Below are positions 7,338 to 57,706 of a stretch of DNA of 60,272 nucleotides, piece after piece. The first letter of the stretch is position 1. Each line of letters starts with the position of its first letter. Position numbers and translations under genes: made by a program. The stretch lies in the UHGV virus genome UHGV-0197990; one strand, 5' to 3'. The notes under the pieces were generated by a model. That model saw nothing but the letters and a program-made list of their open reading frames with translations. It did no database searches and had not been told where the DNA came from. Source of the DNA: a virus.

Positions 7338-7708
7338 GATTAACAACATACCACTGTGGGAAAGCAGTGATTAAGGACAAGAATAAGCTGTCAGAAGCTA
7401 TTGAGAAGTTAGCGGAGTTTGAGGAAAAAGAAAAATGTGGAGAATGGCTTGATGCTATCGAACTTGCGAAAATTGCTATTGCACTGCAAAGTCAGAAGTG
7501 GATTCCAGTAAGTGAGAGACTTCCCGAAGATGAAAGCTACATACTGGTATCGTTTGAAAACTCCACAATGCCGGATATCGCGCGATATGAAGAAAATGAC
7601 GAGGGTGGTACGTTCTATCCGGGAGATGATGAAAAATCATATTCAAGCTATGGATTTTTTGTGAATGCCTGGATGCCGTTACCGAAACCGTATAAGGAGA
7701 GTAATTAA
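7334..7708 (+). CDS. DUF551 domain protein
   Basis: 124 aa. WIPVSERLPE...YILV...WMPLPKPY matches the DUF551 signature. Confidence 0.6.
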   Translation: MRLTTYHCGKAVIKDKNKLSEAIEKLAEFEEKEKCGEWLDAIELAKIAIALQSQKWIPVSERLPEDESYILVSFENSTMPDIARYEENDEGGTFYPGDDEKSYSSYGFFVNAWMPLPKPYKESN

Positions 7709-8004
7709 TGGAAGAATTAAAACCATGTCCTAGATGTGGAACGAAAGCATATCTTTCAAGAGATGTGGTAGACGGATTTTATTTCGGATGGTCGGCTGGC
7801 TGTCCGAGATACTGCCACTACGATGGAATACACGGAACAACAATAGATACGTCCGAGAAAGATTGCTATGCGGTACACGGAGCGAATTCCAAAGAGGAAG
7901 CTATTGAGATATGGAATAATCGTGTTGAGCATCTGAGAGAACTCGATCAACAGATAGGTTATGAGAAAATCTTCGAAGAAATGCAAATAAATTCATTGAG
8001 ATAA
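7708..8004 (+). CDS. Lar-family restriction alleviation-like protein (Cys4 zinc ribbon)
   Basis: 98 aa. N-terminal LKPCPRCG...C..C zinc-ribbon as in Lar family. Confidence 0.45.
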   Translation: MEELKPCPRCGTKAYLSRDVVDGFYFGWSAGCPRYCHYDGIHGTTIDTSEKDCYAVHGANSKEEAIEIWNNRVEHLRELDQQIGYEKIFEEMQINSLR

Positions 8005-10296: not shown

Positions 10297-10356
10297 TGGT
10301 TTAGAATTGGCTTAGGGTGAAAACTTGGTCAATTCTTTTTTGAAGGAGAATTGATT

Positions 10357-11700
10357 ATGGGGAAAATGAATGTAGCTTACATGAGAGTTTCAACAGAAGC
10401 TCAGACAGAAAAGTACGGATTAGACGTGCAAAGGGACAAGATTCAGGACTTGGCTGACAAGAATAATGCAAAAATTGAAAGGTGGTATGTTGACGGAGGA
10501 TATTCTGGAAGTAATATTGACAGACCAGAAATGCAGAGACTTCTTGATGATGCAAGAGACGGGAAAATTTCTTCGGTGTATGTATACAAACTTGACCGAA
10601 TGAGCCGAGATGCGATTGACACACTTACTCTTCTTTACCGGACACTTCCAAAATACGGAGTAAAGATAGAATCTGTTACAGAAGAACTTAGATTTGAAAC
10701 ACCAATGGATAAAGTAATGGTCGGCGTAAATGCCATTATGGGGCAGTATGAAAGAGAAGTCATATATATGAGAACTCGTGCCGGGATGGTCGAAAGAGTC
10801 AAGAAAGGCTTGTGGATGGGAGGCGGGAATCAACCATACGGATATTACTATGACAGAAACGATGGAATACTTCATCCAAAAGAAGACGAAGCTGAAAACG
10901 TCAGAAGAATGTTTGAGATGTATAACAGCGGAATGTCTTGCAGAAGCATATCCGAAATTCTCGGAATAAAATGTGAAAAGGTTGTAAGAGATGTTTTGAG
11001 GAGAAAATCTAATATTGGATACATTGAGTATAACGGAGTGCTATACAAAGGACTGCACGAGCCAATTGTTGATGAAGATGTGTTTTGGAATACTCAAGAG
11101 CTTATAGAGCGGAGATCAAACAACTATTACCTTGCCAATAAACATATTCTTTCAGGACTATGCTTTTGCGGAAAGTGCGGCGCAAAGATGAGATACAAAA
11201 TGTGGGGCAGTTACTTTATCCTTGAGTGTTATTCCAGAGAGGGAACAAAAAAGAACATGGTGAAATCAAGTCACTGTGATAACAAAAGGAATAAAGCTTC
11301 ATATATTGAAAAAGAAGTCACTGACTGTTTCAAGAAGTTTATCATCAATGTCGAGCCAAACTCAGACAGATCAGAAAATAAAGAACTTGTTAAGAACGAG
11401 ATAAAAAAGTCGAATGAGAAGTTGAAAAGATTGTATCTTCTGTATTCTGATAGCGGAAATGATGTCCTTTTTGGAGTAATAAAAGATGAAGAAAAGCGAT
11501 TAAATTCCTTAAAAGTAAAATTAGAGGATGAAATCCGAAGAGAAAACTCAAATAAGGAATCGAAAATCAAAAGAATAAGAAAAATGTCTGACATATGGGA
11601 CGAACTTGACACTCAAGAGAAGAATAAAATTCTCAAGGAGTGTATTGAAAAGATTATTATTACGGATGATGATATAGAAATAAGATTTAATATCGAATAA
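10357..11700 (+). CDS. large serine recombinase (phage integrase type)
   Basis: N-terminal resolvase catalytic motif YMRVSTEAQ, recombinase domain and C-terminal Cys4 zinc ribbon (CFCGKCG...C). ATG 10357 preceded by GAAGGAGA. Confidence 0.9.
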   Translation: MGKMNVAYMRVSTEAQTEKYGLDVQRDKIQDLADKNNAKIERWYVDGGYSGSNIDRPEMQRLLDDARDGKISSVYVYKLDRMSRDAIDTLTLLYRTLPKYGVKIESVTEELRFETPMDKVMVGVNAIMGQYEREVIYMRTRAGMVERVKKGLWMGGGNQPYGYYYDRNDGILHPKEDEAENVRRMFEMYNSGMSCRSISEILGIKCEKVVRDVLRRKSNIGYIEYNGVLYKGLHEPIVDEDVFWNTQELIERRSNNYYLANKHILSGLCFCGKCGAKMRYKMWGSYFILECYSREGTKKNMVKSSHCDNKRNKASYIEKEVTDCFKKFIINVEPNSDRSENKELVKNEIKKSNEKLKRLYLLYSDSGNDVLFGVIKDEEKRLNSLKVKLEDEIRRENSNKESKIKRIRKMSDIWDELDTQEKNKILKECIEKIIITDDDIEIRFNIE

Positions 11701-11874: not shown

Positions 11875-12051
11875 ATGTTTTCAGATGCGATACTTGTTCA
11901 GATATTCAGTGATGATCGTCTCAATGGCATCCCACTTGAATATCAGTCAACGGTTGTTCATGTTGTAGAAGATGTGATTGACAGAAGATTCTACACTGAT
12001 AAACCGTTCGCTTCAAGAGAAGAGATACTTGAGGATGTGTGTGAAAGATAG
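11875..12051 (+). CDS. small hypothetical protein (58 aa)
   Basis: RBS AAGGAGG spaced 7 nt from ATG. Below the track cutoff. Confidence 0.4.
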   Translation: MFSDAILVQIFSDDRLNGIPLEYQSTVVHVVEDVIDRRFYTDKPFASREEILEDVCER

Positions 12052-12061
12052 GAGGTCTATC

Positions 12062-12565
12062 ATGTACGAGAATCCATATTTCGGAAATCCGTACTTGCAG
12101 CAGAATCAGCAGAGGTACGGAACTCCATATCAGCAACCAGTTCAACAGATGCAAGCTCAACAGCCTGCTTACAATCAGATACAACAGGTCCCGCAGCAGA
12201 TTCAGCAACCACAACTGATTGGTCACATTGTTGATGGTCAAGAGACGATACAGGCAAGTGACGTTCCAATGAACGCTCCTTATGCGCTGTTTCCAAAAAA
12301 TGATTTGTCAGAAATCTATTTAAAGTCATGGACTGCCAACGGAACTATTCAGACAATCGTCTTTAAGCCTGTTCAAAATCAGCAGACAGACAATTTACCG
12401 TCTACTCAATCAGAAATGAAAATAGGGCTATCTGACGATGCGACAGAAGCGTTTATGAAGAGATTTGACGAGCTTGGACGGAAGCTTGATGAACTGGAAA
12501 ACTCTATGAGCAACAGCAAACCGAAAACACGGTCTACAGTCAAAAAGGATGGTGACGGAGAATGA
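12062..12565 (+). CDS. Gln/Pro-rich hypothetical protein
   Basis: ATG 12062 preceded by AGGAGG. N-terminal Q-rich low-complexity segment. The tracked ORF starts upstream at 11978. Confidence 0.5.
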   Translation: MYENPYFGNPYLQQNQQRYGTPYQQPVQQMQAQQPAYNQIQQVPQQIQQPQLIGHIVDGQETIQASDVPMNAPYALFPKNDLSEIYLKSWTANGTIQTIVFKPVQNQQTDNLPSTQSEMKIGLSDDATEAFMKRFDELGRKLDELENSMSNSKPKTRSTVKKDGDGE

Positions 12566-12780
12566 ACCCAATTAACCTTTTCGGAAATCCTCAGCAGTTT
12601 TTAAAACAGATGATGGGGAATAATCAAGTAATGAACAACCCCATGGCCAAGAATGCTCTTGATATGGCTCAAAAAGGAGACATGAAAGGAATAGAGCAGT
12701 TGGCAAGGAACCTTGGAAAAGAACAAGGAACAAATGTTGATGAACTTATGAATCAAATAAGAAGTAAGTTTGGATTATAG
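12562..12780 (+). CDS. hypothetical small protein
   Basis: 72-aa ORF, translationally coupled. Confidence 0.4.
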   Translation: MNPINLFGNPQQFLKQMMGNNQVMNNPMAKNALDMAQKGDMKGIEQLARNLGKEQGTNVDELMNQIRSKFGL

Positions 12781-12847
12781 CATATTAGAGGTTTGTGCAC
12801 AGAAACTCGAGAAACCTCTTTATGAATAAAATTAAGGAGGAACTAAT

Positions 12848-13627
12848 ATGTTTAACTCAACTAACACACCTTTTACAATGCCAGTCATGCCAGCAACAGG
12901 CGGTTACGCTGATGGAGCTGGTTGGGGAGACGGGGGATGGTTATGGATCATCGTCGTATTCGCACTGCTTTTTGGCTGGGGAAACAATGGATTTGGTAAC
13001 GGATTCGGAAATGGTGGCGGTTATGCAGCAACAGTAGCTACACAGGCTGACATTCAGAGGGGATTCGATACTCAGAACATTGTTGGAAAACTGGACGGAA
13101 TCAACAATGGATTGTGTGATGGCTTTTACGCTCAGAACACAGCTCTGATGAATGGATTCCACGGAGTTGACAATGCAATCTGCAATCTGGGATACCAGAC
13201 ACAGCAGGGATTCAACACAACAAATGTTGCTTTGATGCAGGGTCAGAATGCATTACAGGCACAGCTTTCCGATTGTTGCTGCCAGAACAGAGAAGCTATT
13301 TCTCAGGTAAGATTTGACATGGCACAGGATACATGCGCTTTGCAGAACACAATGAATACGAACACTCGTGACATCATTGAGAGTCAGAACGCTGGAACAA
13401 GAGCAATCCTTGATTACCTCTGCCAGGATAAGATCGCTACATTACAGGCTGAGAACAACGATCTGAGACTTGCAGCTTCACAGGATAGACAGAATGCTCT
13501 TCTGACTACTGCAATGACAGCTCAGACAAATCAGATTATCAATGCTGTAAACCCTACACCAATTCCGGCATATCAGGTACCTAACCCGAATGTGTATTAC
13601 GGATGCGGTAATGGATGTGGTTGTTAA
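12848..13627 (+). CDS. Gly/Asn/Gln-rich membrane-anchored protein with C-terminal CGNGCGC
   Basis: 259 aa, RBS AAGGAGG. One TM (WLWIIVVFALLF), GNGFGNGFGNGGG repeats and a Cys cluster. Confidence 0.5.
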   Translation: MFNSTNTPFTMPVMPATGGYADGAGWGDGGWLWIIVVFALLFGWGNNGFGNGFGNGGGYAATVATQADIQRGFDTQNIVGKLDGINNGLCDGFYAQNTALMNGFHGVDNAICNLGYQTQQGFNTTNVALMQGQNALQAQLSDCCCQNREAISQVRFDMAQDTCALQNTMNTNTRDIIESQNAGTRAILDYLCQDKIATLQAENNDLRLAASQDRQNALLTTAMTAQTNQIINAVNPTPIPAYQVPNPNVYYGCGNGCGC

Positions 13628-13839
13628 TGACCAACAATCAAAACGGAAACTACTCTTTTCTTGATATGTTGAACGTCTTTTCCGTTATCTTGCAGATGAT
13701 TGGATACGACCAAGATCAGAAGCAAACGTCTAATGATGACTTGCTAAGAGCCTTGCAGAGACAGGACAGGGAGTATCTCGAGAAGATAATTTCCAATCAA
13801 AATCAAATCTTGGATATTCTTTCCAAGACGAATGAGTAA
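13627..13839 (+). CDS. hypothetical small protein
   Basis: ATG overlaps the upstream stop (TAATG). Confidence 0.35.
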   Translation: MTNNQNGNYSFLDMLNVFSVILQMIGYDQDQKQTSNDDLLRALQRQDREYLEKIISNQNQILDILSKTNE

Positions 13840-13934
13840 CTTAACTTAAATGTTATGTCTGCTATAAGCAGTATTACGAATACAAGGGGCAGACTACAAA
13901 TAGTTTGTCCCTTAAATTATGGAGGTAAAAGACT

Positions 13935-14357
13935 ATGGCTGAATATTTAGCTGTTTCTGCTCAAGAAGTAGCAGTGAACGGAAATGTTATCTTTACAAAC
14001 ACGGCAGTTCAAGGAAATAACTGCATTAAACATCGCGAGGGTTCTGGAATCGTTACTCTTAGAGGAATCACAAATCAGTGCAGAGCGCGCTATTTTGTTG
14101 ATTTTTCAGCAAATATCGCAGTACCGACCGGAGGTACAGCCGGAGCAATCTCACTGGCTATCGCAATCAGCGGAGAGCCTGTTCTTTCTTCTCAGATGAT
14201 TAGTACTCCGGCAGCAGTTGACCAGTACAATAATGTATCTGCTGGTATCTATATTGACGTACCGGCCGGATGCTGCGTGAATATCGCTGTCGAGAATACA
14301 AGTACGCAGGAAATCAACGTGGCAAATGCGAACCTTGTTGTTACAAGAGAAGCTTAG
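13935..14357 (+). CDS. BclA C-terminal domain-like (C1q/TNF-fold) exosporium-type protein
   Basis: 140 aa. AQEVAVNGNVIFTN...GIYIDVPAG...ANANLVV pattern as in BclA_C family proteins. RBS GGAGGT. Confidence 0.5.
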   Translation: MAEYLAVSAQEVAVNGNVIFTNTAVQGNNCIKHREGSGIVTLRGITNQCRARYFVDFSANIAVPTGGTAGAISLAIAISGEPVLSSQMISTPAAVDQYNNVSAGIYIDVPAGCCVNIAVENTSTQEINVANANLVVTREA

Positions 14358-14370
14358 GAGGTGAACGAGT

Positions 14371-15003
14371 ATGCATATCAAACATATACATGAATTGATT
14401 GAAAAGCTTTCTGAGTGCGCTTGTTCTGAACTTTCTAGCGGTATTGAAAACGTTAATACTTGCGAGATGGGACAGGTCATCGACATGATTAAAGACCTTG
14501 CAGATGCCGAATATCATGCAAGAATCTCAAAAGCTATGGAAGAAGCTGAGGAAGATGAAAAAGAGGAAGAGAAGTATCTTCTAAAAATGTTCAAAGACCA
14601 GTACGGTGAAGAGGATGCCAGGAGATATTATGACGAATACCGTTATAAGTCCGGCAGATTCGCTCCGAAAGGTCACGGAATGAGAAGAGGATACAATGAG
14701 CCGCCTTATTGGCACATGACTCCTGAGATGTATCGTGACTGGGACACTGATCGTGACATGGACAGAGACAAGCACGGAAGAATGTATTACACAGAGCCTA
14801 AATCATCCAGTCGCTATGATATGGCTCGCCGTGGCTATACAGAAGCAAGAGATACACACAAGGACAAGGACACTAAGATGCATGAACTTGAGTCCTACAT
14901 GACAGAACTCGGAAAAGATGTAAGCGATCTGATTTCCGGCATGTCACCAGAAGAGAGGACTCTTGCGAAGTCAAAGCTTGCTACTCTTATCAATAAGATG
15001 TAA
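14371..15003 (+). CDS. hypothetical charged protein
   Basis: 210 aa, RBS AGGAGGTG. Confidence 0.45.
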   Translation: MHIKHIHELIEKLSECACSELSSGIENVNTCEMGQVIDMIKDLADAEYHARISKAMEEAEEDEKEEEKYLLKMFKDQYGEEDARRYYDEYRYKSGRFAPKGHGMRRGYNEPPYWHMTPEMYRDWDTDRDMDRDKHGRMYYTEPKSSSRYDMARRGYTEARDTHKDKDTKMHELESYMTELGKDVSDLISGMSPEERTLAKSKLATLINKM

Positions 15004-15047: not shown

Positions 15048-15374
15048 ATGAATTTCTATATCAATGATGAATTATGGCATGTCCAATATGAAAATCCATC
15101 CAGTGAGCTACTGAGACGGTCAGACGGTGTTTACACGCTTGGTGTTACTGACAGAATGACCAATACAATCTATCTGTCTAATCGTCTCTCAGATACCATG
15201 TTTGACCGCGTTCTTTCCCATGAGCTGACTCACGCTGTTTGCATGACCTACGGAATTTCTCTTCCTATAGAAACAGAGGAACGCCTTTGCAATTTTATTT
15301 CTGACCATGCGAGAGAAATTATTTCATTGACTGATTTGATTGAAAATATTTTGCTTGCTCGTGTTGTTTATTAA
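15048..15374 (+). CDS. small HExxH zinc-metallopeptidase-like protein
   Basis: SHELTHAV motif. ATG 15048 after AGGTGA. Confidence 0.4.
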   Translation: MNFYINDELWHVQYENPSSELLRRSDGVYTLGVTDRMTNTIYLSNRLSDTMFDRVLSHELTHAVCMTYGISLPIETEERLCNFISDHAREIISLTDLIENILLARVVY

Positions 15375-15397
15375 TTCCATTTGTGCTATAATAATAT

Positions 15398-15530
15398 CAG
15401 CGACGAGAAATATGTGAAGAACGAATGGGATTCAGATCAACAAGGGTCAGGAATCGTCAGCCTGAGTATACTGAGAAAAATGATAGTACAAAATACTGTC
15501 TTTACTCTCAGCGTACTCAGGCTTTTTTAT
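15398..15530 (+). ncRNA. structured RNA copy 1 (about 130 nt) with its own promoter and intrinsic terminator. Paralog of 23752-23884
   Basis: TTGTTT-17-TATAAT promoter at 15364-15392. Conserved core ATCAGCGAC.AGAAAT..GTGAA...CGAATGGGA...GGAATCGTCAGCC. Hairpin TCAGG/CCTGA competes with terminator stem GCCTGAGTA...TACTCAGGC followed by T6. Confidence 0.55.
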
Positions 15531-15779
15531 TTCTCTCATATACTCCAGTGATGGTGCTGGATACGAAAAACGGAATACCGACCAGTGATGCGTCTGGTTA
15601 CGAATTGAACGGTGCAGAGTCTATTGAGTTAGGCTCTGCTATTTCTGACAAAAAAATAAGAGTTGCCTACCGACCAAAGTACCAGCTCTTAAAACAACCA
15701 ATCTAAAAGGATGCTTACTAAATTATAATAGCACATCCTTTTGGAAAAACCAACGTTTTTATGAAAAGGAGAAGAAAAA

Positions 15780-16484
15780 ATGAATGAATTAAGCGTATTT
15801 AAAAATGAGGAATTCGGAGAAATCAGAACTGTAATTATTGAAAATGAACCAATGTTCTGTTTATCAGATGTATGTAAAGCATTGGGTCTTACTCAGCCAT
15901 CAAAGGTAAAAGAAAGACTAAATGAAAAGGGTGTGAGTAGTATTCCTACCCTTACAGCTGGTGGAGAACAGAAACTTCTCTATATTAATGAGTCCAATCT
16001 CTATAAGACGATTTTCCAAAGCAGAAAAGAATCAGCCGAGAGATTTACAGGCTGGGTAACATCCGAAGTCCTCCCATGCATCCGAAAGAACGGAATCTAC
16101 GCAACAGATAACGTTATTGATAATATCTTGAATAACCCGGACTTCGGTATTGAGCTTCTGACCAAACTGAAAGAAGAAAGAGCAGCAAGAATTGAAGCTG
16201 AAAAGACAAATGCTATCCTTATGCATGTCAACAAAACATATACCATGACAGAAATTGCGAAAGAGATCGGTCTGAAAAGTGCAAATGAACTGAATAAGAT
16301 TCTGGCTGAAAAGAAGATTCAGTATAAGTCAAATGGAACATGGGTTATGTACTCTGACTATAGCGATCTTGGATACGAGTCTATAAAGCAAGAAACACTT
16401 GATAGCGGTCGTGTGATTTATCACAGAAGAATTACACAGCTTGGAAGAAAGTTTATTTTAGGTTTGTTTGACTTAGCTGCATAA
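15780..16484 (+). CDS. phage antirepressor, Bro-N domain plus KilA-C-like C-terminal domain
   Basis: 234 aa. N-terminus FKNEEFGEIRTV...CLSDVCKALG (Bro-N). Confidence 0.8.
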   Translation: MNELSVFKNEEFGEIRTVIIENEPMFCLSDVCKALGLTQPSKVKERLNEKGVSSIPTLTAGGEQKLLYINESNLYKTIFQSRKESAERFTGWVTSEVLPCIRKNGIYATDNVIDNILNNPDFGIELLTKLKEERAARIEAEKTNAILMHVNKTYTMTEIAKEIGLKSANELNKILAEKKIQYKSNGTWVMYSDYSDLGYESIKQETLDSGRVIYHRRITQLGRKFILGLFDLAA

Positions 16485-19468: not shown

Positions 19469-19489
19469 GTTTAAAAAGGAGTGATTCCA

Positions 19490-20229
19490 TTGAAAAAATA
19501 CCAGAAAGACGCGCAAAACCGTTATAACTCAAAGTTTGATATTGTGCAAGCTAGATTACCGAAAGGAACGAAAGAGCGGATACAGAGCCTAGACTACACT
19601 ATAAACGCTTTTATCGTTGAAGCAGTAGAAACTATGCTTAAATCATTTGAAACGCCAACAGCCCCGATTTTAGAGCCTACAGAGAGCGTTTTGCAGATCG
19701 AAGAAGAGACGAAAGAGGTCGACCAGATGGCAGCAGTTGAAGTGATGCCATGGGAAGAGGGTTTTGTTGATCCTTTGTCTGAGTCAGAAGAGGAAAAGAA
19801 GAAAGAGAAATCTGCTAAATTCTTAGCTCGCAAATATGGGGAGCAAATCACTGACATTGTTATACAGAAAGACTTGATAAATACTTACAGCGTGGATATT
19901 TTGCAAAAGCGAAAGAATACGTTAAGCACCCGGAACTACTGGAAGAACCGGAACAGGAAAGCAAGCCAGAAGAAAAGGGCATTCAATCACTTGAGGAATT
20001 AAACGAAGAGCTTTCAAAGAAGAGAGCAGAAGACGCTGCTAAAATTTCCGAAGAAGAAGAACGCCGTCAAAATTACTGGAAGAATATACAAGAGTCAAAC
20101 AAAGCAGACATCGTGAACCATTTCAAAAGAATGCGAAACGGCTCTGAAATGACCGAAGAAGAGCGAAAGAAAGAAGCAGAACGGGAAGAATGGAAGAAAA
20201 AGAACAACAAGGAATTCGGCGTTTGATTC
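19490..20229 (+). pseudogene. RHH DNA-binding protein gene with an apparent -1 frame change (C-terminal half continues in another frame to 20229)
   Basis: N-terminus DIVQARLPKGTKERIQSL..INAFIVEAVETML is RHH. The frame starting at 19490 turns into a basic nonsense tail after about 19860. An overlapping frame, open 19855-20229, encodes a plausible acidic coiled-coil with no start codon. Confidence 0.4.
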
Positions 20230-22576: not shown

Positions 22577-22976
22577 TTAGGCACAAATGCAATAGGCATA
22601 TTATACAAATATTAAGCACAAATACAACAGCGTTTTTGTCTATTATTTATTAAGCACAAATAAGCATTGAAAATAAGGCGTTAATATACTATAATGAAAG
22701 AAAACAGGAAGGGAGATAGAAAGATGCCAGAATATACAGAGAAGCAGAAAGAACAACGTAGAAAAGCAGTTGCGGAATATATGAAAACAGTTGATCGTGT
22801 TAATTGTCAGTTTCCACTAGGAACGAAAGAAAGAATAAAAGAGCTTACCGGGAAAAGCTGCAACGCCTTTATAAAAGAAACAATATTAAAAGAACTGGAT
22901 AAAATAGAAAGAAAGAAAGTTAAAACAAATTAAGCACAAATATTTACATTATTATATATTGACATTAGGCACAAAT
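22577..22976. promoter_or_regulatory. operator set: five 12-mers TTARGCACAAAT at 22577, 22613, 22650, 22930 and 22965, flanking RHH gene 22724-22933. Consensus promoter TTGACA-17-TATAAT at 22959-22987 with an operator in the spacer
   Basis: Exact or near-exact 12-mers, direct orientation, paired at 35-37 bp spacing. Confidence 0.6.
22724..22933 (+). CDS. ribbon-helix-helix DNA-binding protein (paralog of the 19490 RHH)
   Basis: VNCQFPLGTKERIKELTGKSCNAFIKETILKEL parallels IVQARLPKGTKERIQSLDYTINAFIVEAVETML. ATG 22724 after GGAAGGGAG. Tracked ATG 22694 sits in the -10 box. Confidence 0.55.
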   Translation: MPEYTEKQKEQRRKAVAEYMKTVDRVNCQFPLGTKERIKELTGKSCNAFIKETILKELDKIERKKVKTN

Positions 22977-23042
22977 AAATATATAATAATACTTGTGAGA
23001 GATACTTACGAGTTGCCGTGGCAAGCGGAGAAAGGAGAAAAC

Positions 23043-23330: not shown

Positions 23331-23751
23331 ATACTTGTTAGTTCAAACTAACAGAGCAAGTAGGGTTACAAAACTGTTAACAAATTGTTACGATAAATAT
23401 TTAACAAATGCCAACTAAGCCAGTAAACACAAGGGCAAACAGGGATTTTATAAATGTTACGCTGTGCAAATTATTATGCTATTTGTATACAGATTGGATA
23501 CAGAATGGATACAGGAGAAAAAAGATAGAAAACGAGAAAGAAAAAAAGAAAGAAGCAAAGAAATAAAAGAAAGAGTTAAAAGACAGAAATAAAGAGAGAT
23601 ATATACCCGACTTTCGCCGTCGAAAACAAACGCCCAGGAACGAACGCAGACCAAAAACCGATTGAAAACACGGACGCACACACCTTGATAAAAATTTAAA
23701 ATTAATTTATTCGACACTATTGCAAACAGATTTTCGTTGTGTTATAATGGC

Positions 23752-23884
23752 ATCAGCGACAAGAAATCCGTGAAAGCCGAATGGGAGCTGGATCGAAAAG
23801 AGCTAGGAATCGTCAGCCTAGGCATATCGAGAAAATAACAGACAATGAGCTGTTCAATATCTCGGTGTGTCTAGGCTTTTTTGT
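23752..23884 (+). ncRNA. structured RNA copy 2 (paralog of 15398-15530), directly upstream of gene 23920
   Basis: Promoter TTGCAA-17-TATAAT (23720-23748). Same conserved core as copy 1. Compensatory changes in hairpin CTAGG/CCTAG and in terminator GCCTAGGCA...TGTCTAGGC followed by T6. Confidence 0.55.
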
Positions 23885-23919
23885 TTATAGATTATTTGAC
23901 AGTGCGGAGGTGAGAAACA

Positions 23920-24606
23920 ATGGCTAAGAGAAGAACACAGAAAACAGAGAGAGTAGGAGCTGAGACAGTGAACAGTGTTGAAAGTGTTGAAGTTGATCCA
24001 GTCAACCTCAGAGCCTTAGTCGATGACGTGATCACTGATTACTGCATTAGAGATGATCTTGACGAATCAGACATTCCACCACAGATCTGGAATGACATCA
24101 TCGAAGAGATCAGAATAACACTGTTCGAGAAGAACGGCAATCTGCTCTGGATCAATGGCAGCATTGGCGGAACCTATGACGATGAGAAAGTCATGAATGC
24201 CTATAAGATTTACAAGAGAATCTGCAATAGACACTGCCAAGTCGTAAATATCAAAGGGTTCTCGGATATGTCTGGGATAGACAAACAAACACTATATAAC
24301 TGGGATAAAGACAGTAGATATAACAGTAAATATAATCCTAGTAATAGTGGTGGTAATAGTAATAGACTAAGTAAAAAATATTTCGATTTGCGCAAGAAAA
24401 TCATGGACGATAACGAGCAATCACTGGAGTCAATGTTACAGGATAAGCGTATAAATCCTATGAAGGTGTTACCGTCACTTAACAGGCACCACATGTGGAA
24501 CCTTCCAGGCGTTAGCCGTGAGAAAGTGGAGGCAAGACCACTGACCGCAGACCAATTGCCACAGCTGGGACAGGATCTGACGCCACAGATCGAGGAAAAC
24601 GATTGA
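23920..24606 (+). CDS. hypothetical protein
   Basis: 228 aa. RBS GGAGGTGAG. Confidence 0.55.
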   Translation: MAKRRTQKTERVGAETVNSVESVEVDPVNLRALVDDVITDYCIRDDLDESDIPPQIWNDIIEEIRITLFEKNGNLLWINGSIGGTYDDEKVMNAYKIYKRICNRHCQVVNIKGFSDMSGIDKQTLYNWDKDSRYNSKYNPSNSGGNSNRLSKKYFDLRKKIMDDNEQSLESMLQDKRINPMKVLPSLNRHHMWNLPGVSREKVEARPLTADQLPQLGQDLTPQIEEND

Positions 24607-25413: not shown

Positions 25414-25599
25414 ATGATTGATAAAGAAACGCAAAAAGCTGTTGATATGTTTTATAGCATTTATTTTGAGTTTTACAAGAAATGCCGAGATCGGAATACT
25501 GCAATTCAGCTGACATGTGCATTATGCGGTGTGAAAGTGCCTGAATTAGAAACATTTTCGTTTTTGTTTGGGAATAGTGGACGCAAGAGGAATGAATGA
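25414..25599 (+). CDS. hypothetical small protein
   Basis: ATG 25414 after GGAGGG. Confidence 0.35.
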   Translation: MIDKETQKAVDMFYSIYFEFYKKCRDRNTAIQLTCALCGVKVPELETFSFLFGNSGRKRNE

Positions 25600-25860
25600 T
25601 GGGCGAGAAAGATAAGAGAAGATAGCTTGATTGTCTTTGAACATGGAAAAGAAATCAGAGCGATTGTCAATAGCAAAGATATCAAGTACATCCTGAGAAT
25701 TGAGTAGGAGAGAATATATGCTGAAAATAATTCAACGCCTGTTCTGCCGACACGATCACGTGGTGCATGACCATTCAGATCTTGTTCGACAGGAAGACGG
25801 AAGTTTCAAGACAAAACATTATTGACGGTGTAAGAGCTGCGGAAAGGTGATATCAGGAAA

Positions 25861-27623: not shown

Positions 27624-27703
27624 AGCCGTATAGCTTAATTGGTAAAGCGTTCGTTCTTACCCTACCCGGACGAAAGATTGAGGTTCGACTCCTTATACGG
27701 AAA
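27624..27703 (+). tRNA. aberrant tRNA-like gene (possible pseudo-tRNA): normal D- and T-arms but anticodon region with 7 extra nt (7-bp stem TTCGTTC/GGACGAA and 11-nt loop TTACCCTACCC)
   Basis: TAGCTTAATTGGTAAAGC D-arm and TGAGGttcgactCCTTA T-arm. Acceptor pairs only 5-6 of 7. Confidence 0.3.
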
Positions 27704-28435
27704 TTCAAACATGATTATCTCGGTGAAGAGTGATTTTTCAGTCATGCCGAGATGCAATGGTAACGAGATAGGCTTGTTCGAGATATTGGATAAGCTGATT
27801 CTTTCCACTAGGAGTGATCCTGGTGGTGGAGATGGGAACCATCAACAATGCCTTGTAGTGTATCATCATAGAGAAGTCAAATGCAGACTCCTTGTGGTCG
27901 GCGATCAATAGACGCTTGCAGTGCAAGAACAATCCATTTAGTTCGTGGTGTGAGAGACTACCAACAGCGATGGAAATTCTCAATAAGCTGATTTGCCTTG
28001 AAGCTGAGAAATCAGTGTATAACACAAGAAAGTCGTTAAAGTAGCGGTATGGCAAGTTCTTAATTTTACCAAAATGTTTTAAGTGGATAAAAAAACATTA
28101 AATAAAATATTCTGAAAGAACCGTGAAATTTGTAGGTATCAATCCTATGTGTGCTTATACAGTGGTAGGAAGCCAAGAGTCGCTCTCAGAAGCTCAGACC
28201 TATCATCACAGTGGCAGAATATGACTTTTACCATGATTGAATAAGGGGAAACCCTAATCATGTTTGAACAAAATTCAATCAGTGTTTTAGCTGCGGAGTT
28301 CGCTGAAGCTCGGAAACTAACGTTTTGTTAATAAAATACGTGGTTTATCGATTATATAATAAACTCCAATATTATAAAGAACCGTAGCAGTGCAAGGATT
28401 CCTTACGGCTTTCGAGGTAAATTTCTTGCAGCTAA

Positions 28436-29366: not shown

Positions 29367-29457
29367 ATATTAACAGCTCATGCCCGGATGCGGACAGGGA
29401 ACAGGGGAGTGCTCCTTAACTTTTTTATTTTAAGAGTTAGGGGGCACTTTTTGTGTT

Positions 29458-55930: not shown

Positions 55931-55966
55931 CAAAAATCCCGGGTGAAATTCCCGGGTTCTTTTTAT
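55931..55966. terminator. bidirectional terminator
   Basis: CCCGGGtgaaattCCCGGG flanked by A-run and T-run. Confidence 0.7.
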
Positions 55967-56583
55967 TTCTTTTTATTGTTATTCTTTCTTGTTTGACCAG
56001 TCATTGTGTAACCGTTCTTACTTTCGCATGCGGCTTCACGACCTCTTTGCAAAGCAATATTCAAAGAAGCAAGGTCAGGCATTATATTATCTTCATTGGC
56101 AAGCTCACCTCTTGCTTTTTCCATAAGGAAGTTGTCGTAAACAGCTTGACAGATATTAACTCTCGACCGCATAGAGCAGTGATTGTTAGCTGTCAGCATA
56201 TTCAACTGCTCGTGCCATGAAGAGCCAGTATCTCCGAACATACAGTAAGCCATTTGACGAATATCTCGCTCAGTGTAGTTTGCGTTTATGTAAGCATGAA
56301 TACAGTCAACCATCTTTTCGATTTCTGTATCTTTTTCAATAGTTAAGAATTTGTCCGGGTATCGGTAGCTGAGAATGTACTTTTCCATGTTTAATCCTAG
56401 CACCGAAAACCATTTCTCAAGTGTTCTGTAACCTGGCTCACCTATTCCAGACTCCCAGTTCTGAATTGTAGTGACTGACTTTCCGAGAGCTTGAGCCATT
56501 TGCTTTCTTGTTTTTCCGGCATCTGTTCTTGATTTTGCAAGCATGTTGCCAAAATTCTGTGCTCTTTCAATCTCAGATGACAT
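55963..56583 (-). CDS. XRE-family HTH regulator with C-terminal domain
   Basis: ATG (revcomp at 56583) after AAGGAGG. HTH KTRKQMAQALGKSVTTIQNWESG. Confidence 0.7.
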   Translation of the reverse strand: MSSEIERAQNFGNMLAKSRTDAGKTRKQMAQALGKSVTTIQNWESGIGEPGYRTLEKWFSVLGLNMEKYILSYRYPDKFLTIEKDTEIEKMVDCIHAYINANYTERDIRQMAYCMFGDTGSSWHEQLNMLTANNHCSMRSRVNICQAVYDNFLMEKARGELANEDNIMPDLASLNIALQRGREAACESKNGYTMTGQTRKNNNKKK

Positions 56584-56784
56584 AAAAAATTTTACCTCCT
56601 TTTTGCCATTTCGCAACCAAAAAATTGTGTGTCCAATCCCAAAAAATAAAGACATAATATTTTACGTCTATTTTTCACGGATGCGAATAAAAAATTTAAT
56701 GCATAATTATAAAAATTTTAGTAAGTACTTTTTCCCCCGTTTCCGCTATAATAAAAACAAATTTTAAAAACGGAGGGCAAACAC

Positions 56785-56988
56785 ATGAAAGAATTTTTAA
56801 ACACTATTGCATACTTATTATCTGTGAGACCGATTATTGGTGAAACTGAGTACATGAGACAGTTGTCCTCATATGTTGGAACGATTGTCCCGGAGTCAAA
56901 GTCAGACCAATTTGACCGATTTCCTCTTGCATCTTACACCAGTGCTGACAATCTTGCAAGTGATATCTTCAAATTTATTGATGATTAA
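56785..56988 (+). CDS. hypothetical protein
   Basis: 67 aa. RBS ACGGAGGG. Confidence 0.4.
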   Translation: MKEFLNTIAYLLSVRPIIGETEYMRQLSSYVGTIVPESKSDQFDRFPLASYTSADNLASDIFKFIDD

Positions 56989-57156
56989 TTCTTAATAATC
57001 GTTATTCGTTTCTCTTATAGATGGGTCAGGGGTGATTTGTATGGATGAGAAAGAGAGACTGAGATTGCAACTAATAGAAATGATCGTTAAAATAGAAAGC
57101 GCAGGCACAATAGAGTACCTGCACACATTCGTTAAACTTTTTTTAGAAGAGTGGGG

Positions 57157-57543
57157 TTAGTCCTCGCTCTTTTTATGCGATAGCATATAATTTATTAAAT
57201 TCATAATTATTTCTTGTTCCTCTTTATTCAATAAAGAGAATTTGTTATAAAATCCAAAATCTTCTTCAGCGATTTCTTTTGAAACCTTAGCTTTACCTTC
57301 TGTTTCATCACCATCAAATCCCATTAGCCATGATTCGGTTACTCCAAGAGCCATTGATAATACCATAATTTTATCTTGACTCGGCTCAACTTTTCCGGAA
57401 ACATATTGGCTTATATTAGACTTGTTCATTTTTACGTTATATTTTTCGCAAAATGGCAATGTTTTATTCAGTATATCAATTTGCTTTAAATTTTGTTTTT
57501 CCATTATTTCTTTTAATCTAATAGAAGAACTGCTTATTTTCAT
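57157..57543 (-). CDS. CI-like XRE-family repressor
   Basis: 128 aa from ATG at 57543 (RBS GGAGGTG). HTH plus dimerisation region. Divergent from the cro-like gene. Confidence 0.7.
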   Translation of the reverse strand: MKISSSSIRLKEIMEKQNLKQIDILNKTLPFCEKYNVKMNKSNISQYVSGKVEPSQDKIMVLSMALGVTESWLMGFDGDETEGKAKVSKEIAEEDFGFYNKFSLLNKEEQEIIMNLINYMLSHKKSED

Positions 57544-57706
57544 TTGTAACACCTCCTTTCCGATAAATAATATAACACTATTTGAATAAAAGTTCAATAC
57601 GTAAAACTAAAAAGTTAAAAAAGTTGAACAAAAGTATTGACATACTGGAATTGCAATGATATGATTTAAGAAGTTCAAGATATTGAACTAGAAAGGAGAT
57701 AAAAAG
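57544..57706. promoter_or_regulatory. lysogeny switch intergenic region with operators AGTTCAA...TTGAACT (perfect inverted repeat at 57673-57690 plus half-sites) and TTGACA-17-TATGAT promoter
   Basis: Repeated GTTCAA/TTGAAC motifs between divergent XRE genes. Confidence 0.55.

Follow-up and report, generated by a model that had tools for sequence, protein, structure and literature searches.

Late-gene control in the phages of Gram-positive bacteria is mostly explained by promoter activators such as RinA, ArpU and LtrC and, to our knowledge, antitermination via RNA sites is textbook knowledge only for the lambdoid coliphages. The locus described here suggests that uncultured gut phages use another design, in which a pair of RNA switches would connect two regions to one signal. 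It comprises two paralogous leaders, called copy 1 and copy 2 (their relatives in other phages being of type 1 and type 2, respectively), which would work like the known antitermination and attenuation leaders and belong to none of these groups.

The HK022 putL and putR RNAs are two related, promoter-proximal RNAs of about 70 nt that form two stem-loops and act in cis on termination (PMC9378689), and the present leaders, which probably act in cis as well, are similar in these respects. However, put RNAs have no alternative fold, act on distant terminators, bind the zinc-binding domain of the RNA polymerase beta' subunit and function in E. coli, whereas the second hairpin of the leaders described here overlaps the adjacent terminator and the host is an uncultured gut bacterium of Gram-positive type. 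The comparison with put is one of descriptions only.

The lambda nutL and nutR sites, together with N, are also paired paralogous RNA sites through which one phage factor acts on two transcription units. In contrast to nut, the alignment of the present leaders contains neither a CUCUU-type boxA nor a boxB-type 5-bp stem with a GNRA-like pentaloop; both supported hairpins carry 9-nt loops, and GUGAAGAAC could form a pentaloop hairpin in type 1 only. Moreover, both sites are on the same strand, and the mechanism is probably a local competition between hairpins rather than a modification of the polymerase. No family match to an N-like arginine-rich antiterminator was found nearby, such proteins being small and poorly modelled.

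With respect to late genes, the lambda PR'-qut-tR' unit (6S RNA), which is controlled by Q, and StxS combine a constitutive late promoter with a leader that is short and terminated by default, so that late and packaging genes are expressed via read-through only; in addition, the leader may moonlight as an sRNA (PMC7547250). Copy 2 shows the same arrangement of an apparently constitutive late promoter, a short terminated leader and late genes downstream. However, Q recognises DNA and a sigma-dependent pause, while the conserved, covarying features described here are in the RNA, and inspection of columns 4-30 of the alignment by eye revealed no conserved NANNAT-type hexamer of a pause element.

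In the ANTAR, BglG/LicT RAT and PyrR systems a weak antiterminator shares bases with the 5' arm of the terminator and needs a bound protein. ANTAR substrates consist of two tandem hairpins, the second of which overlaps the terminator, as is the case here, but their loops are hexanucleotides with conserved A1 and G4 instead of 9-nt loops, and no ANTAR domain is present in the scanned ORFs. The present leaders do not resemble RAT or PyrR sites in sequence, nor was a cognate protein domain detected in the phage. In the preQ1, SAM-II and fluoride pseudoknot riboswitches a 5' strand pairs with the loop of the hairpin that competes with the terminator. The present leaders, which differ in having no Rfam match and in occurring in one phage lineage, have a pseudoknot by prediction only. 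Finally, a long operon of pLS20, a Gram-positive mobile element, begins with conAn, an RNA of hundreds of nucleotides by which terminators are overcome (PMC8191782). The conAn2 RNA, however, lies in a 383-bp intergenic region of a conjugation operon and needs ConAn1 for processivity (PMC8191782). While conAn is blocked by long-stem terminators, the domain of about 65 nt described here directly precedes such a terminator, in a phage context; no match to a ConAn1-like protein was found in the phage.

Two paralogous leaders in a temperate gut phage

The stretch of DNA analysed (the window, 60,272 nt in length) is a nearly complete genome, of about 60 kb, of a temperate siphophage. Its main landmarks are the following:

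55963-57597, minus strand: repressor-like genes
57707 across the window end to about 9500: Cro-like gene, followed by recombination and replication genes
10351-11700: serine integrase
15396-15532, plus strand: copy 1
23752-23886, plus strand: copy 2
29458 (start): large terminase, with the structural genes after it

The original prediction of two paralogous structured RNAs is borne out, since the copies share their folds and align with 80% identity over 220 nt, promoters included. The start of copy 1, placed earlier at 15398, has been corrected to 15396, in register with the ATCAGC at 23752 of copy 2. The conserved 5' core is as described, with an invariant GATC and an invariant AAG in addition. 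When a covariance model built from the 5' 73 nt was run on the window, copies 1 and 2 scored 103 bits each and there was no third copy, the next match scoring 15.9 bits. The copy number of two is far beyond chance.

Each copy is preceded by a promoter:

15364-15392, plus strand: promoter of copy 1 (TTGTTT, 17-bp spacer, extended -10 TGCTATAAT)
23720-23748, plus strand: promoter of copy 2 (TTGCAA, 17-bp spacer, TATAAT with a TG extension; found by promoter scan)

Both copies had been credited with sigma-A promoters of their own with 17-bp spacing. This stands for copy 2, while the -35 hexamer of copy 1 (TTGTTT, 15364-15369) is so weak that the scan did not list it, and both this hexamer and the extended -10 (15384-15392) were recognised by reading. 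The copy 1 promoter nevertheless aligns with that of copy 2 and is kept in all type-1 relatives. The predicted transcription starts are at about A15399 and A23755, and therefore the RNAs begin at about AGCGAC. Both promoters look constitutive, with no evident operator.

Neither copy matches any Rfam 15 family at the gathering score, and at E<=10 both yield only microRNA and snoRNA noise matches on the terminator hairpin. Three pattern scans of IMG/VR recovered about 20 human-gut phage contigs with near-identical versions of the two types, and a scan of JGI/ENA metagenomes added more contigs, with the same two types only among the matches listed. No member was found in a scan of one genome per species (185,579 species), blastn against INPHARED revealed no further member, and covariance model R1 detected none in the relatives recognised by their TerS-like protein or in Dulem virus 39. 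All matches listed in the searches for distant members were to these two types or, by chance, to GC-rich coding DNA. Within the searches made, and to judge from these matches, the family is limited to human-gut phage contigs of a single lineage. In the eight contigs that extend far enough upstream, both types are always present, at fixed positions and with 7-9 kb between them. Since the homologues are all near-identical members of two types, they represent very few independent events. The leaders are a real structured RNA family without counterpart among the families searched, with two paralogues per genome.

Alternative folds of the leaders

The structural alignment contains 20 distinct sequences and its column 1 is the A of AUCAGC. 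The elements of each copy are:

15396-15412, plus strand: 5' single strand of copy 1, (AUC)AGCGACGAGAAAUA, invariant between the paralogues
15413-15439, plus strand: hairpin P2 of copy 1, with four compensatory pairs and the loop CGAAUGGGA
15447-15465, plus strand: hairpin P3 of copy 1, putative antiterminator (UCAGG, loop AAUCGUCAG, CCUGA)
15459-15532, plus strand: intrinsic terminator of copy 1, an interrupted stem of about 26 bp (15459-15523) followed by T6 A T3; -34.7 kcal/mol
23752-23768, plus strand: 5' single strand of copy 2, (AUC)AGCGACAAGAAAUC, conserved
23769-23795, plus strand: hairpin P2 of copy 2, loop CGAAUGGGA
23803-23821, plus strand: hairpin P3 of copy 2, putative antiterminator (CUAGG, AAUCGUCAG, CCUAG)
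23815-23886, plus strand: intrinsic terminator of copy 2, 18 contiguous bp plus 5 bp followed by T6 G T3; -33.8 kcal/mol

Hairpin P2, which had been missed in the original prediction, consists of five pairs (18-19:43-44 and 24-26:36-38) that enclose the invariant loop CGAAUGGGA; four of them are changed on both sides. The internal loop UGAA/RGAU (UGAA/AGAU in copy 1) might contain tandem G.A pairs. At 18:44, type 1 has U-A and most type-2 sequences have C-G, while U-A recurs in a type-2 sub-lineage (L002, L014 and L106), a second and independent event. An alternative register at the base of P2 (20-22:42-44) is thermodynamically better, but it leaves the repeated co-change of positions 18 and 44 unexplained and was rejected.

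Hairpin P3 is formed by pairs 52-56:66-70. The earlier description of a small hairpin, TCAGG/CCTGA in one copy and CTAGG/CCTAG in the other, with two compensatory pairs around the invariant loop AATCGTCAG, proved correct; among the homologues there is also one G-U variant. P3 has only 5 bp, its two covarying pairs represent essentially one divergence between types 1 and 2, and a natural variant (L004) carries a C.A mismatch at 52:70. CsrA-type GGA motifs are present in the P2 loop and in P3.

When the 3' partners were moved by 1-3 columns as a control, 7-42% of the cells were paired, versus 96-100% in register. RNAalifold predicts P2 and P3 independently when given the 5' domain, while for the full-length RNA it predicts the terminator together with helix 5-8:59-62, in which the 5' GCGA (15400-15403 in copy 1) pairs with UCGU of the P3 loop. 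This helix, a candidate P1 or pseudoknot, is invariant save for one G-U variant, hence without covariation signal. Formed together with P3, it would give an H-type pseudoknot, as suggested by these predictions.

Copies 1 and 2 differ at 12 of the 20 paired positions but at only 6 of the 53 unpaired ones (Fisher p=6e-5), although the sequences used for this test had also served, in part, to infer the helices and represent only about two independent events. Fixed unpaired nucleotides within drifting stems look like the signature of single strands that are read by something. As to the covariation expected of a real structure, it is found among the homologues in P2, in P3, in the terminator helices and in the second switch of pair 18:44. 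The 5' 63 nt alone are not stably folded when compared with shuffled sequences (z = -0.5 and +1.2), which fits the need for a stabilising partner.

The P2 loop contains the only shared ATG (CGAATGGGA), at the same position in both copies, from which ORFs of 93 and 48 codons extend (15425-15706 and 23781-23927). It could be the start of a leader peptide whose translation melts the terminator, the similarity between copies being that of a duplicated coding fragment. We regard this as very improbable, and it is the least likely rival: there is no Shine-Dalgarno sequence upstream of the ATG, most codon differences are non-synonymous, and conservation is highest upstream of the ATG, into the promoter. 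A 2-nt indel breaks the common frame, leaving ORFs of different lengths. The substitutions cluster in the stems, where they compensate as RNA pairs, and this speaks against the duplicated coding fragment that had been named as a refuting finding.

Intrinsic terminators usually have stems of 7-11 bp. Those ending both copies are long, as had been noted, with stems of 17-26 bp; columns 64-81:111-128 are paired in 100% of the cells, and the reported covariation of the terminator stems amounts to five compensatory pairs, changed on both sides. The full-length RNAs are far more stable than shuffled sequences (z = -6.1 and -3.9). Columns 66-70 (15461-15465 in copy 1) are at the same time the 3' arm of P3 and the base of the 5' arm of the terminator. 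Since both helices use these five bases, the two folds exclude each other, in agreement with the original prediction. Between the types there is a three-way co-change: UCAGG or CUAGG upstream, CCUGA or CCUAG in the shared segment, and UCAGG or CUAGG once more in the 3' arm of the terminator.

The energy of P3 is -5.1 kcal/mol whereas that of the terminators is about -34 kcal/mol; therefore, termination is the default and only a stabilised P3 can prevail. The minimum-energy fold of nascent transcripts includes P3 at lengths of 72-118 nt in copy 2, while in copy 1 it does not include P3, a local alternative competing with this hairpin. Terminator stems of at least 15 bp resist processive antitermination mediated by conAn (PMC10325885), which favours a bypass in which formation of the hairpin is blocked over a modification of the polymerase.

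These results bear on whether the folded 5' domain, like put, could bind the host RNA polymerase itself, without a protein or ligand, and render it resistant to terminators in a processive manner, regulation being left to the promoters. In being two paralogous RNAs of a temperate phage, about 65-70 nt long, close to their promoters and equipped with two stem-loops, the leaders are strikingly similar to the description of putL and putR (PMC9378689). Further intrinsic terminators, located within the regions that the two copies head (16521, 17206, 18975, 29405, 33715, 38593 and 40004), would need read-through, although internal terminators are common in ordinary phage operons and morons too. However, a very strong terminator right after a constitutive antiterminator has no obvious purpose, its long stem is of the kind that resists processive antitermination by conAn, and the selected overlap between P3 and the terminator points to a local alternative fold. 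Furthermore, the promoters, on which regulation would fall, look constitutive and show no evident operator. We therefore consider a put-like action unlikely.

Genes behind the two copies

The genes that follow the leaders are:

15780-16484, plus strand: Bro-N/KilAC antirepressor, first gene after copy 1 (Pfam Bro-N 1.4e-22, ANT 3e-16)
23920-24606, plus strand: gene 23920, probable small terminase/DNA-packaging protein (228 aa; ribosome-binding site GGAGGTG at 23906-23912)

Type 1 is always situated after an ImmA-like ORF of 109 aa (Peptidase_M78) and before a mosaic accessory region. The boundary of the mosaic lies directly after the T-run of the terminator and, as deduced from synteny in the relatives, the region usually opens with a Bro-N/KilAC antirepressor. 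In the window this gene is followed by genes for an OB-fold/zinc-ribbon protein, Rha and RHH proteins. The distance of about 250 nt between copy 1 and the Bro-N gene given previously is right if counted from the terminator to gene 15780, and this gap has space for another signal.

Other features of this part of the window can be mentioned. Between the serine integrase and the ImmA-like gene (11978-15003) there are low-complexity ORFs, rich in Q, in G/N/C or in R/Y/D. Three of the four ORFs scanned (11978-12565, 12848-13627 and 13935-14357) match PHROGs of unknown function, while the 210-aa ORF at 14371-15003 has no PHROG match. In relatives with type 1, conservation of the two ORFs that lie closest to it (13935-14357 and 14371-15003) is 94-99%. 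ORFs 19481-20002 and 22694-22933 share a ribbon-helix-helix-like motif, LP(K/L)GTKERI...NAFI, which is also found at the end of the ORF that immediately precedes the late leader of contig L130, and perfect or near-perfect consensus promoters flank ORF 22694-22933 (22667-22695 and 22959-22987). In the early region, ORF 5973-6317 matches Pfam Tad4, a type I Thoeris inhibitor (E 9e-35), and ORF 7708-8004 is a Lar-like restriction alleviation gene; therefore, this region carries anti-defence genes.

Type 2 is always found 33-35 nt before a homologue of gene 23920, and the leader is identical even in a contig whose downstream protein is only 71% identical. The original prediction placed copy 2 close upstream of gene 23920, which holds, although the interval of 36 nt becomes 33-35 nt when measured from the T-run to the ATG. 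This gap contains just the ribosome-binding site. A promoter would not fit between the terminator and gene 23920, which therefore depends on read-through.

The product of gene 23920 has no Pfam or PHROG match. Its AlphaFold model (pLDDT 68) finds entries annotated as DNA-packaging protein in BFVD (E 2e-5) and, weakly, several TerS proteins, whereas Foldseek against the PDB was uninformative. To judge from the model, the protein is probably a small terminase or DNA-packaging protein. Its basic N-terminus, MAKRRTQKTER, is variable among homologues. The gene lies upstream of tRNA genes, a ROOL RNA and the large terminase, and the packaging/late region probably begins with this gene.

The ROOL RNA is full-length (27695-28275, 369 bits) and is embedded in a cluster of four phage tRNAs (27281-28506), namely Met-CAU, Arg-ACG, Lys-CUU and Gln-UUG. 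An odd extended anticodon region is seen in the tRNA-Lys call (27624-27703), which abuts or overlaps the 5' end of ROOL. The codons of these four tRNAs, AUG, CGU, CAG and AAG, occur in unpaired conserved parts of the leaders, but we dismissed T-box-like sensing of tRNA as numerology: for a T-box the domain is much too small, and none was matched. At 29405-29451, within the late region and 7 nt before the start of the large terminase, about 20 pairs form a second very long terminator-like stem with a T-run behind it, and transcription from copy 2 would have to pass this hairpin.

Leaders of related phages and a proposed model of conditional termination

Homologues of gene 23920 with 26-57% identity, from other gut phages including Dulem virus 39, mostly have the same architecture in front of them: a consensus promoter is followed by a structured leader and a terminator, and the start codon lies about 35 nt further on. 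The sequences of these leaders are unrelated to the present family and to one another, and none of them matches Rfam. Conditional termination before the TerS-like gene thus appears, from these comparisons, as a recurring, fast-diversifying feature of this phage group. No second copy of the leaders of other clades was found: exact-pattern scans give one match per contig, and self-blast of up to 11-14 kb upstream of those leaders revealed none, while the same procedure recovers copy 1 in the window. Nor does Dulem virus 39 have a leader after its ImmA-like gene. As far as tested, the pairing of leaders seems to be specific to the present lineage.

The explanation we favour, though with moderate confidence, is that both copies are conditional-termination leaders that co-regulate two operons through one shared effector, probably a phage protein. 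In each unit a sigma-A promoter that is strong and apparently constitutive would drive transcription of the conserved domain (about 65 nt), which is followed by the very long terminator. By default the terminator would win, giving an RNA of about 125-130 nt and leaving the downstream genes silent. Read-through would need P3 to be held, since P3 sequesters five bases at the bottom of the 5' arm of the terminator, and P3 could be locked by the pairing of the 5' GCGA with UCGU in its loop, in the form of an H-type pseudoknot. The stabiliser of this state would recognise the invariant unpaired nucleotides. Because the same unpaired nucleotides have been kept in both copies while the stems drifted, the same effector is expected for both, and it would switch on together the antirepressor/accessory region behind copy 1 and the packaging/late region behind copy 2. 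The logic would be that of nutL and nutR, carried out by an alternative fold like that of protein-dependent attenuators. Sequence, structure, covariation, the overlap of the folds, the fixed positions and the missing downstream promoter are shown and well supported; the relief of termination, the nature of the effector and the pseudoknot we infer.

The effector would most likely be a phage-encoded RNA-binding antiterminator made after induction. A phage protein is favoured because the unrelated leaders at the same locus in other phages look like co-evolving specificity pairs. A search of about 70 ORFs, in which most early and accessory ORFs were covered, against Pfam and PHROG revealed no ANTAR, CAT/PRD, N-like, Q-like or NusG-like protein.

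The effector might instead be a metabolite or second messenger, the pseudoknotted 5' domain being an aptamer that reports the state of the host and whose ligand stabilises P3. The invariant loops and junctions within drifting, covarying stems (few as the independent events are), the expression platform of classical type, with P3 and the terminator mutually exclusive, and the small, predicted pseudoknot architecture are all in keeping with a riboswitch. However, the family occurs in a single phage lineage, with no member in the 185,579 species-representative genomes and nothing new in IMG/VR or, among the matches listed, in JGI metagenomes. The unrelated leaders of related phages at the same site suit the specificity of a co-evolving partner and not a universal ligand, and no ligand is suggested by the regulated genes, which encode an antirepressor and a TerS-like protein. 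Such a ligand-binding leader has, in our opinion, a low probability. From the riboswitch or attenuator logic of the original prediction the exclusive folds are retained, while the very narrow distribution does not support the word riboswitch.

Taking put-like action and ligand binding together, it is doubtful that the 5' domain is the first put-like polymerase-binding RNA outside lambdoid phages or a phage-private small-molecule aptamer. If one of these were true, the phage would read the state of its host in RNA, for instance a stress or immune nucleotide signal, and the antirepressor and late genes would be fired together by that state.

The leaders had also been proposed to be either cis-regulatory or a family of phage sRNAs. 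Prematurely terminated late leaders of phages can act as sRNAs, as reported for StxS (PMC7547250) and IsrK (PMC4825925). Accordingly, the transcripts of 125-130 nt could be stand-alone, trans-acting sRNAs that do not regulate the genes downstream; each copy has its own promoter and Rho-independent terminator, and the conserved single-stranded 5' end resembles a seed. Nevertheless, we think that there is only a slim chance of this, since gene 23920 has no other promoter, the position relative to the downstream gene is conserved, and no convincing complement to the 5' strand or to either loop exists in the phage genome. The lack of promoter room at gene 23920 and the analogous cassettes in relatives favour the cis-regulatory leader. 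Both roles are compatible, and the terminated short RNA of a conditional-termination leader may also act as an sRNA by-product, by analogy with StxS and IsrK.

The element is compact and testable. Should an effector be found, it would form with its leader a new pair of RNA and effector for lytic commitment, which might also be of use as an orthogonal regulatory part.

Several RNA features were observed in the relatives. A different leader family precedes the TerS-like gene in at least 20 IMG/VR contigs (for instance L133, at 2300-2470, and also L165-L192). It has a covarying hairpin with the loop AGAUGCGCCCGGA and no Rfam match; GCGCCC of this loop can pair with a downstream GGGCGC, which can alternatively pair with the 5' arm of the terminator. 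The leaders of L127, L316 and L317 (e.g. L317, 11026-11198) are of a third type, with a conserved 5' module, AAGCUCAUACGAGAGCUNUACACGAUUAAGAUUUA, that is joined to two quite different downstream parts and terminators in different contigs. Hammerhead type II and pistol ribozymes, RAGATH-27 and int-alpA RNAs are located a few kb from the TerS-like gene in relatives (L133, 529-598; L135, 479-548; L137, 320-385; L127, 4059-4140; L138, 5269-5337). The closest deposited genome is that of Dulem virus 39 (L314, PP511791.1), whose large terminase is 79% identical; the region before its TerS-like gene (25434-25640) contains, besides a terminator, a promoter of its own (TTGACA-17-TATAAT) and a leader of about 150 nt.
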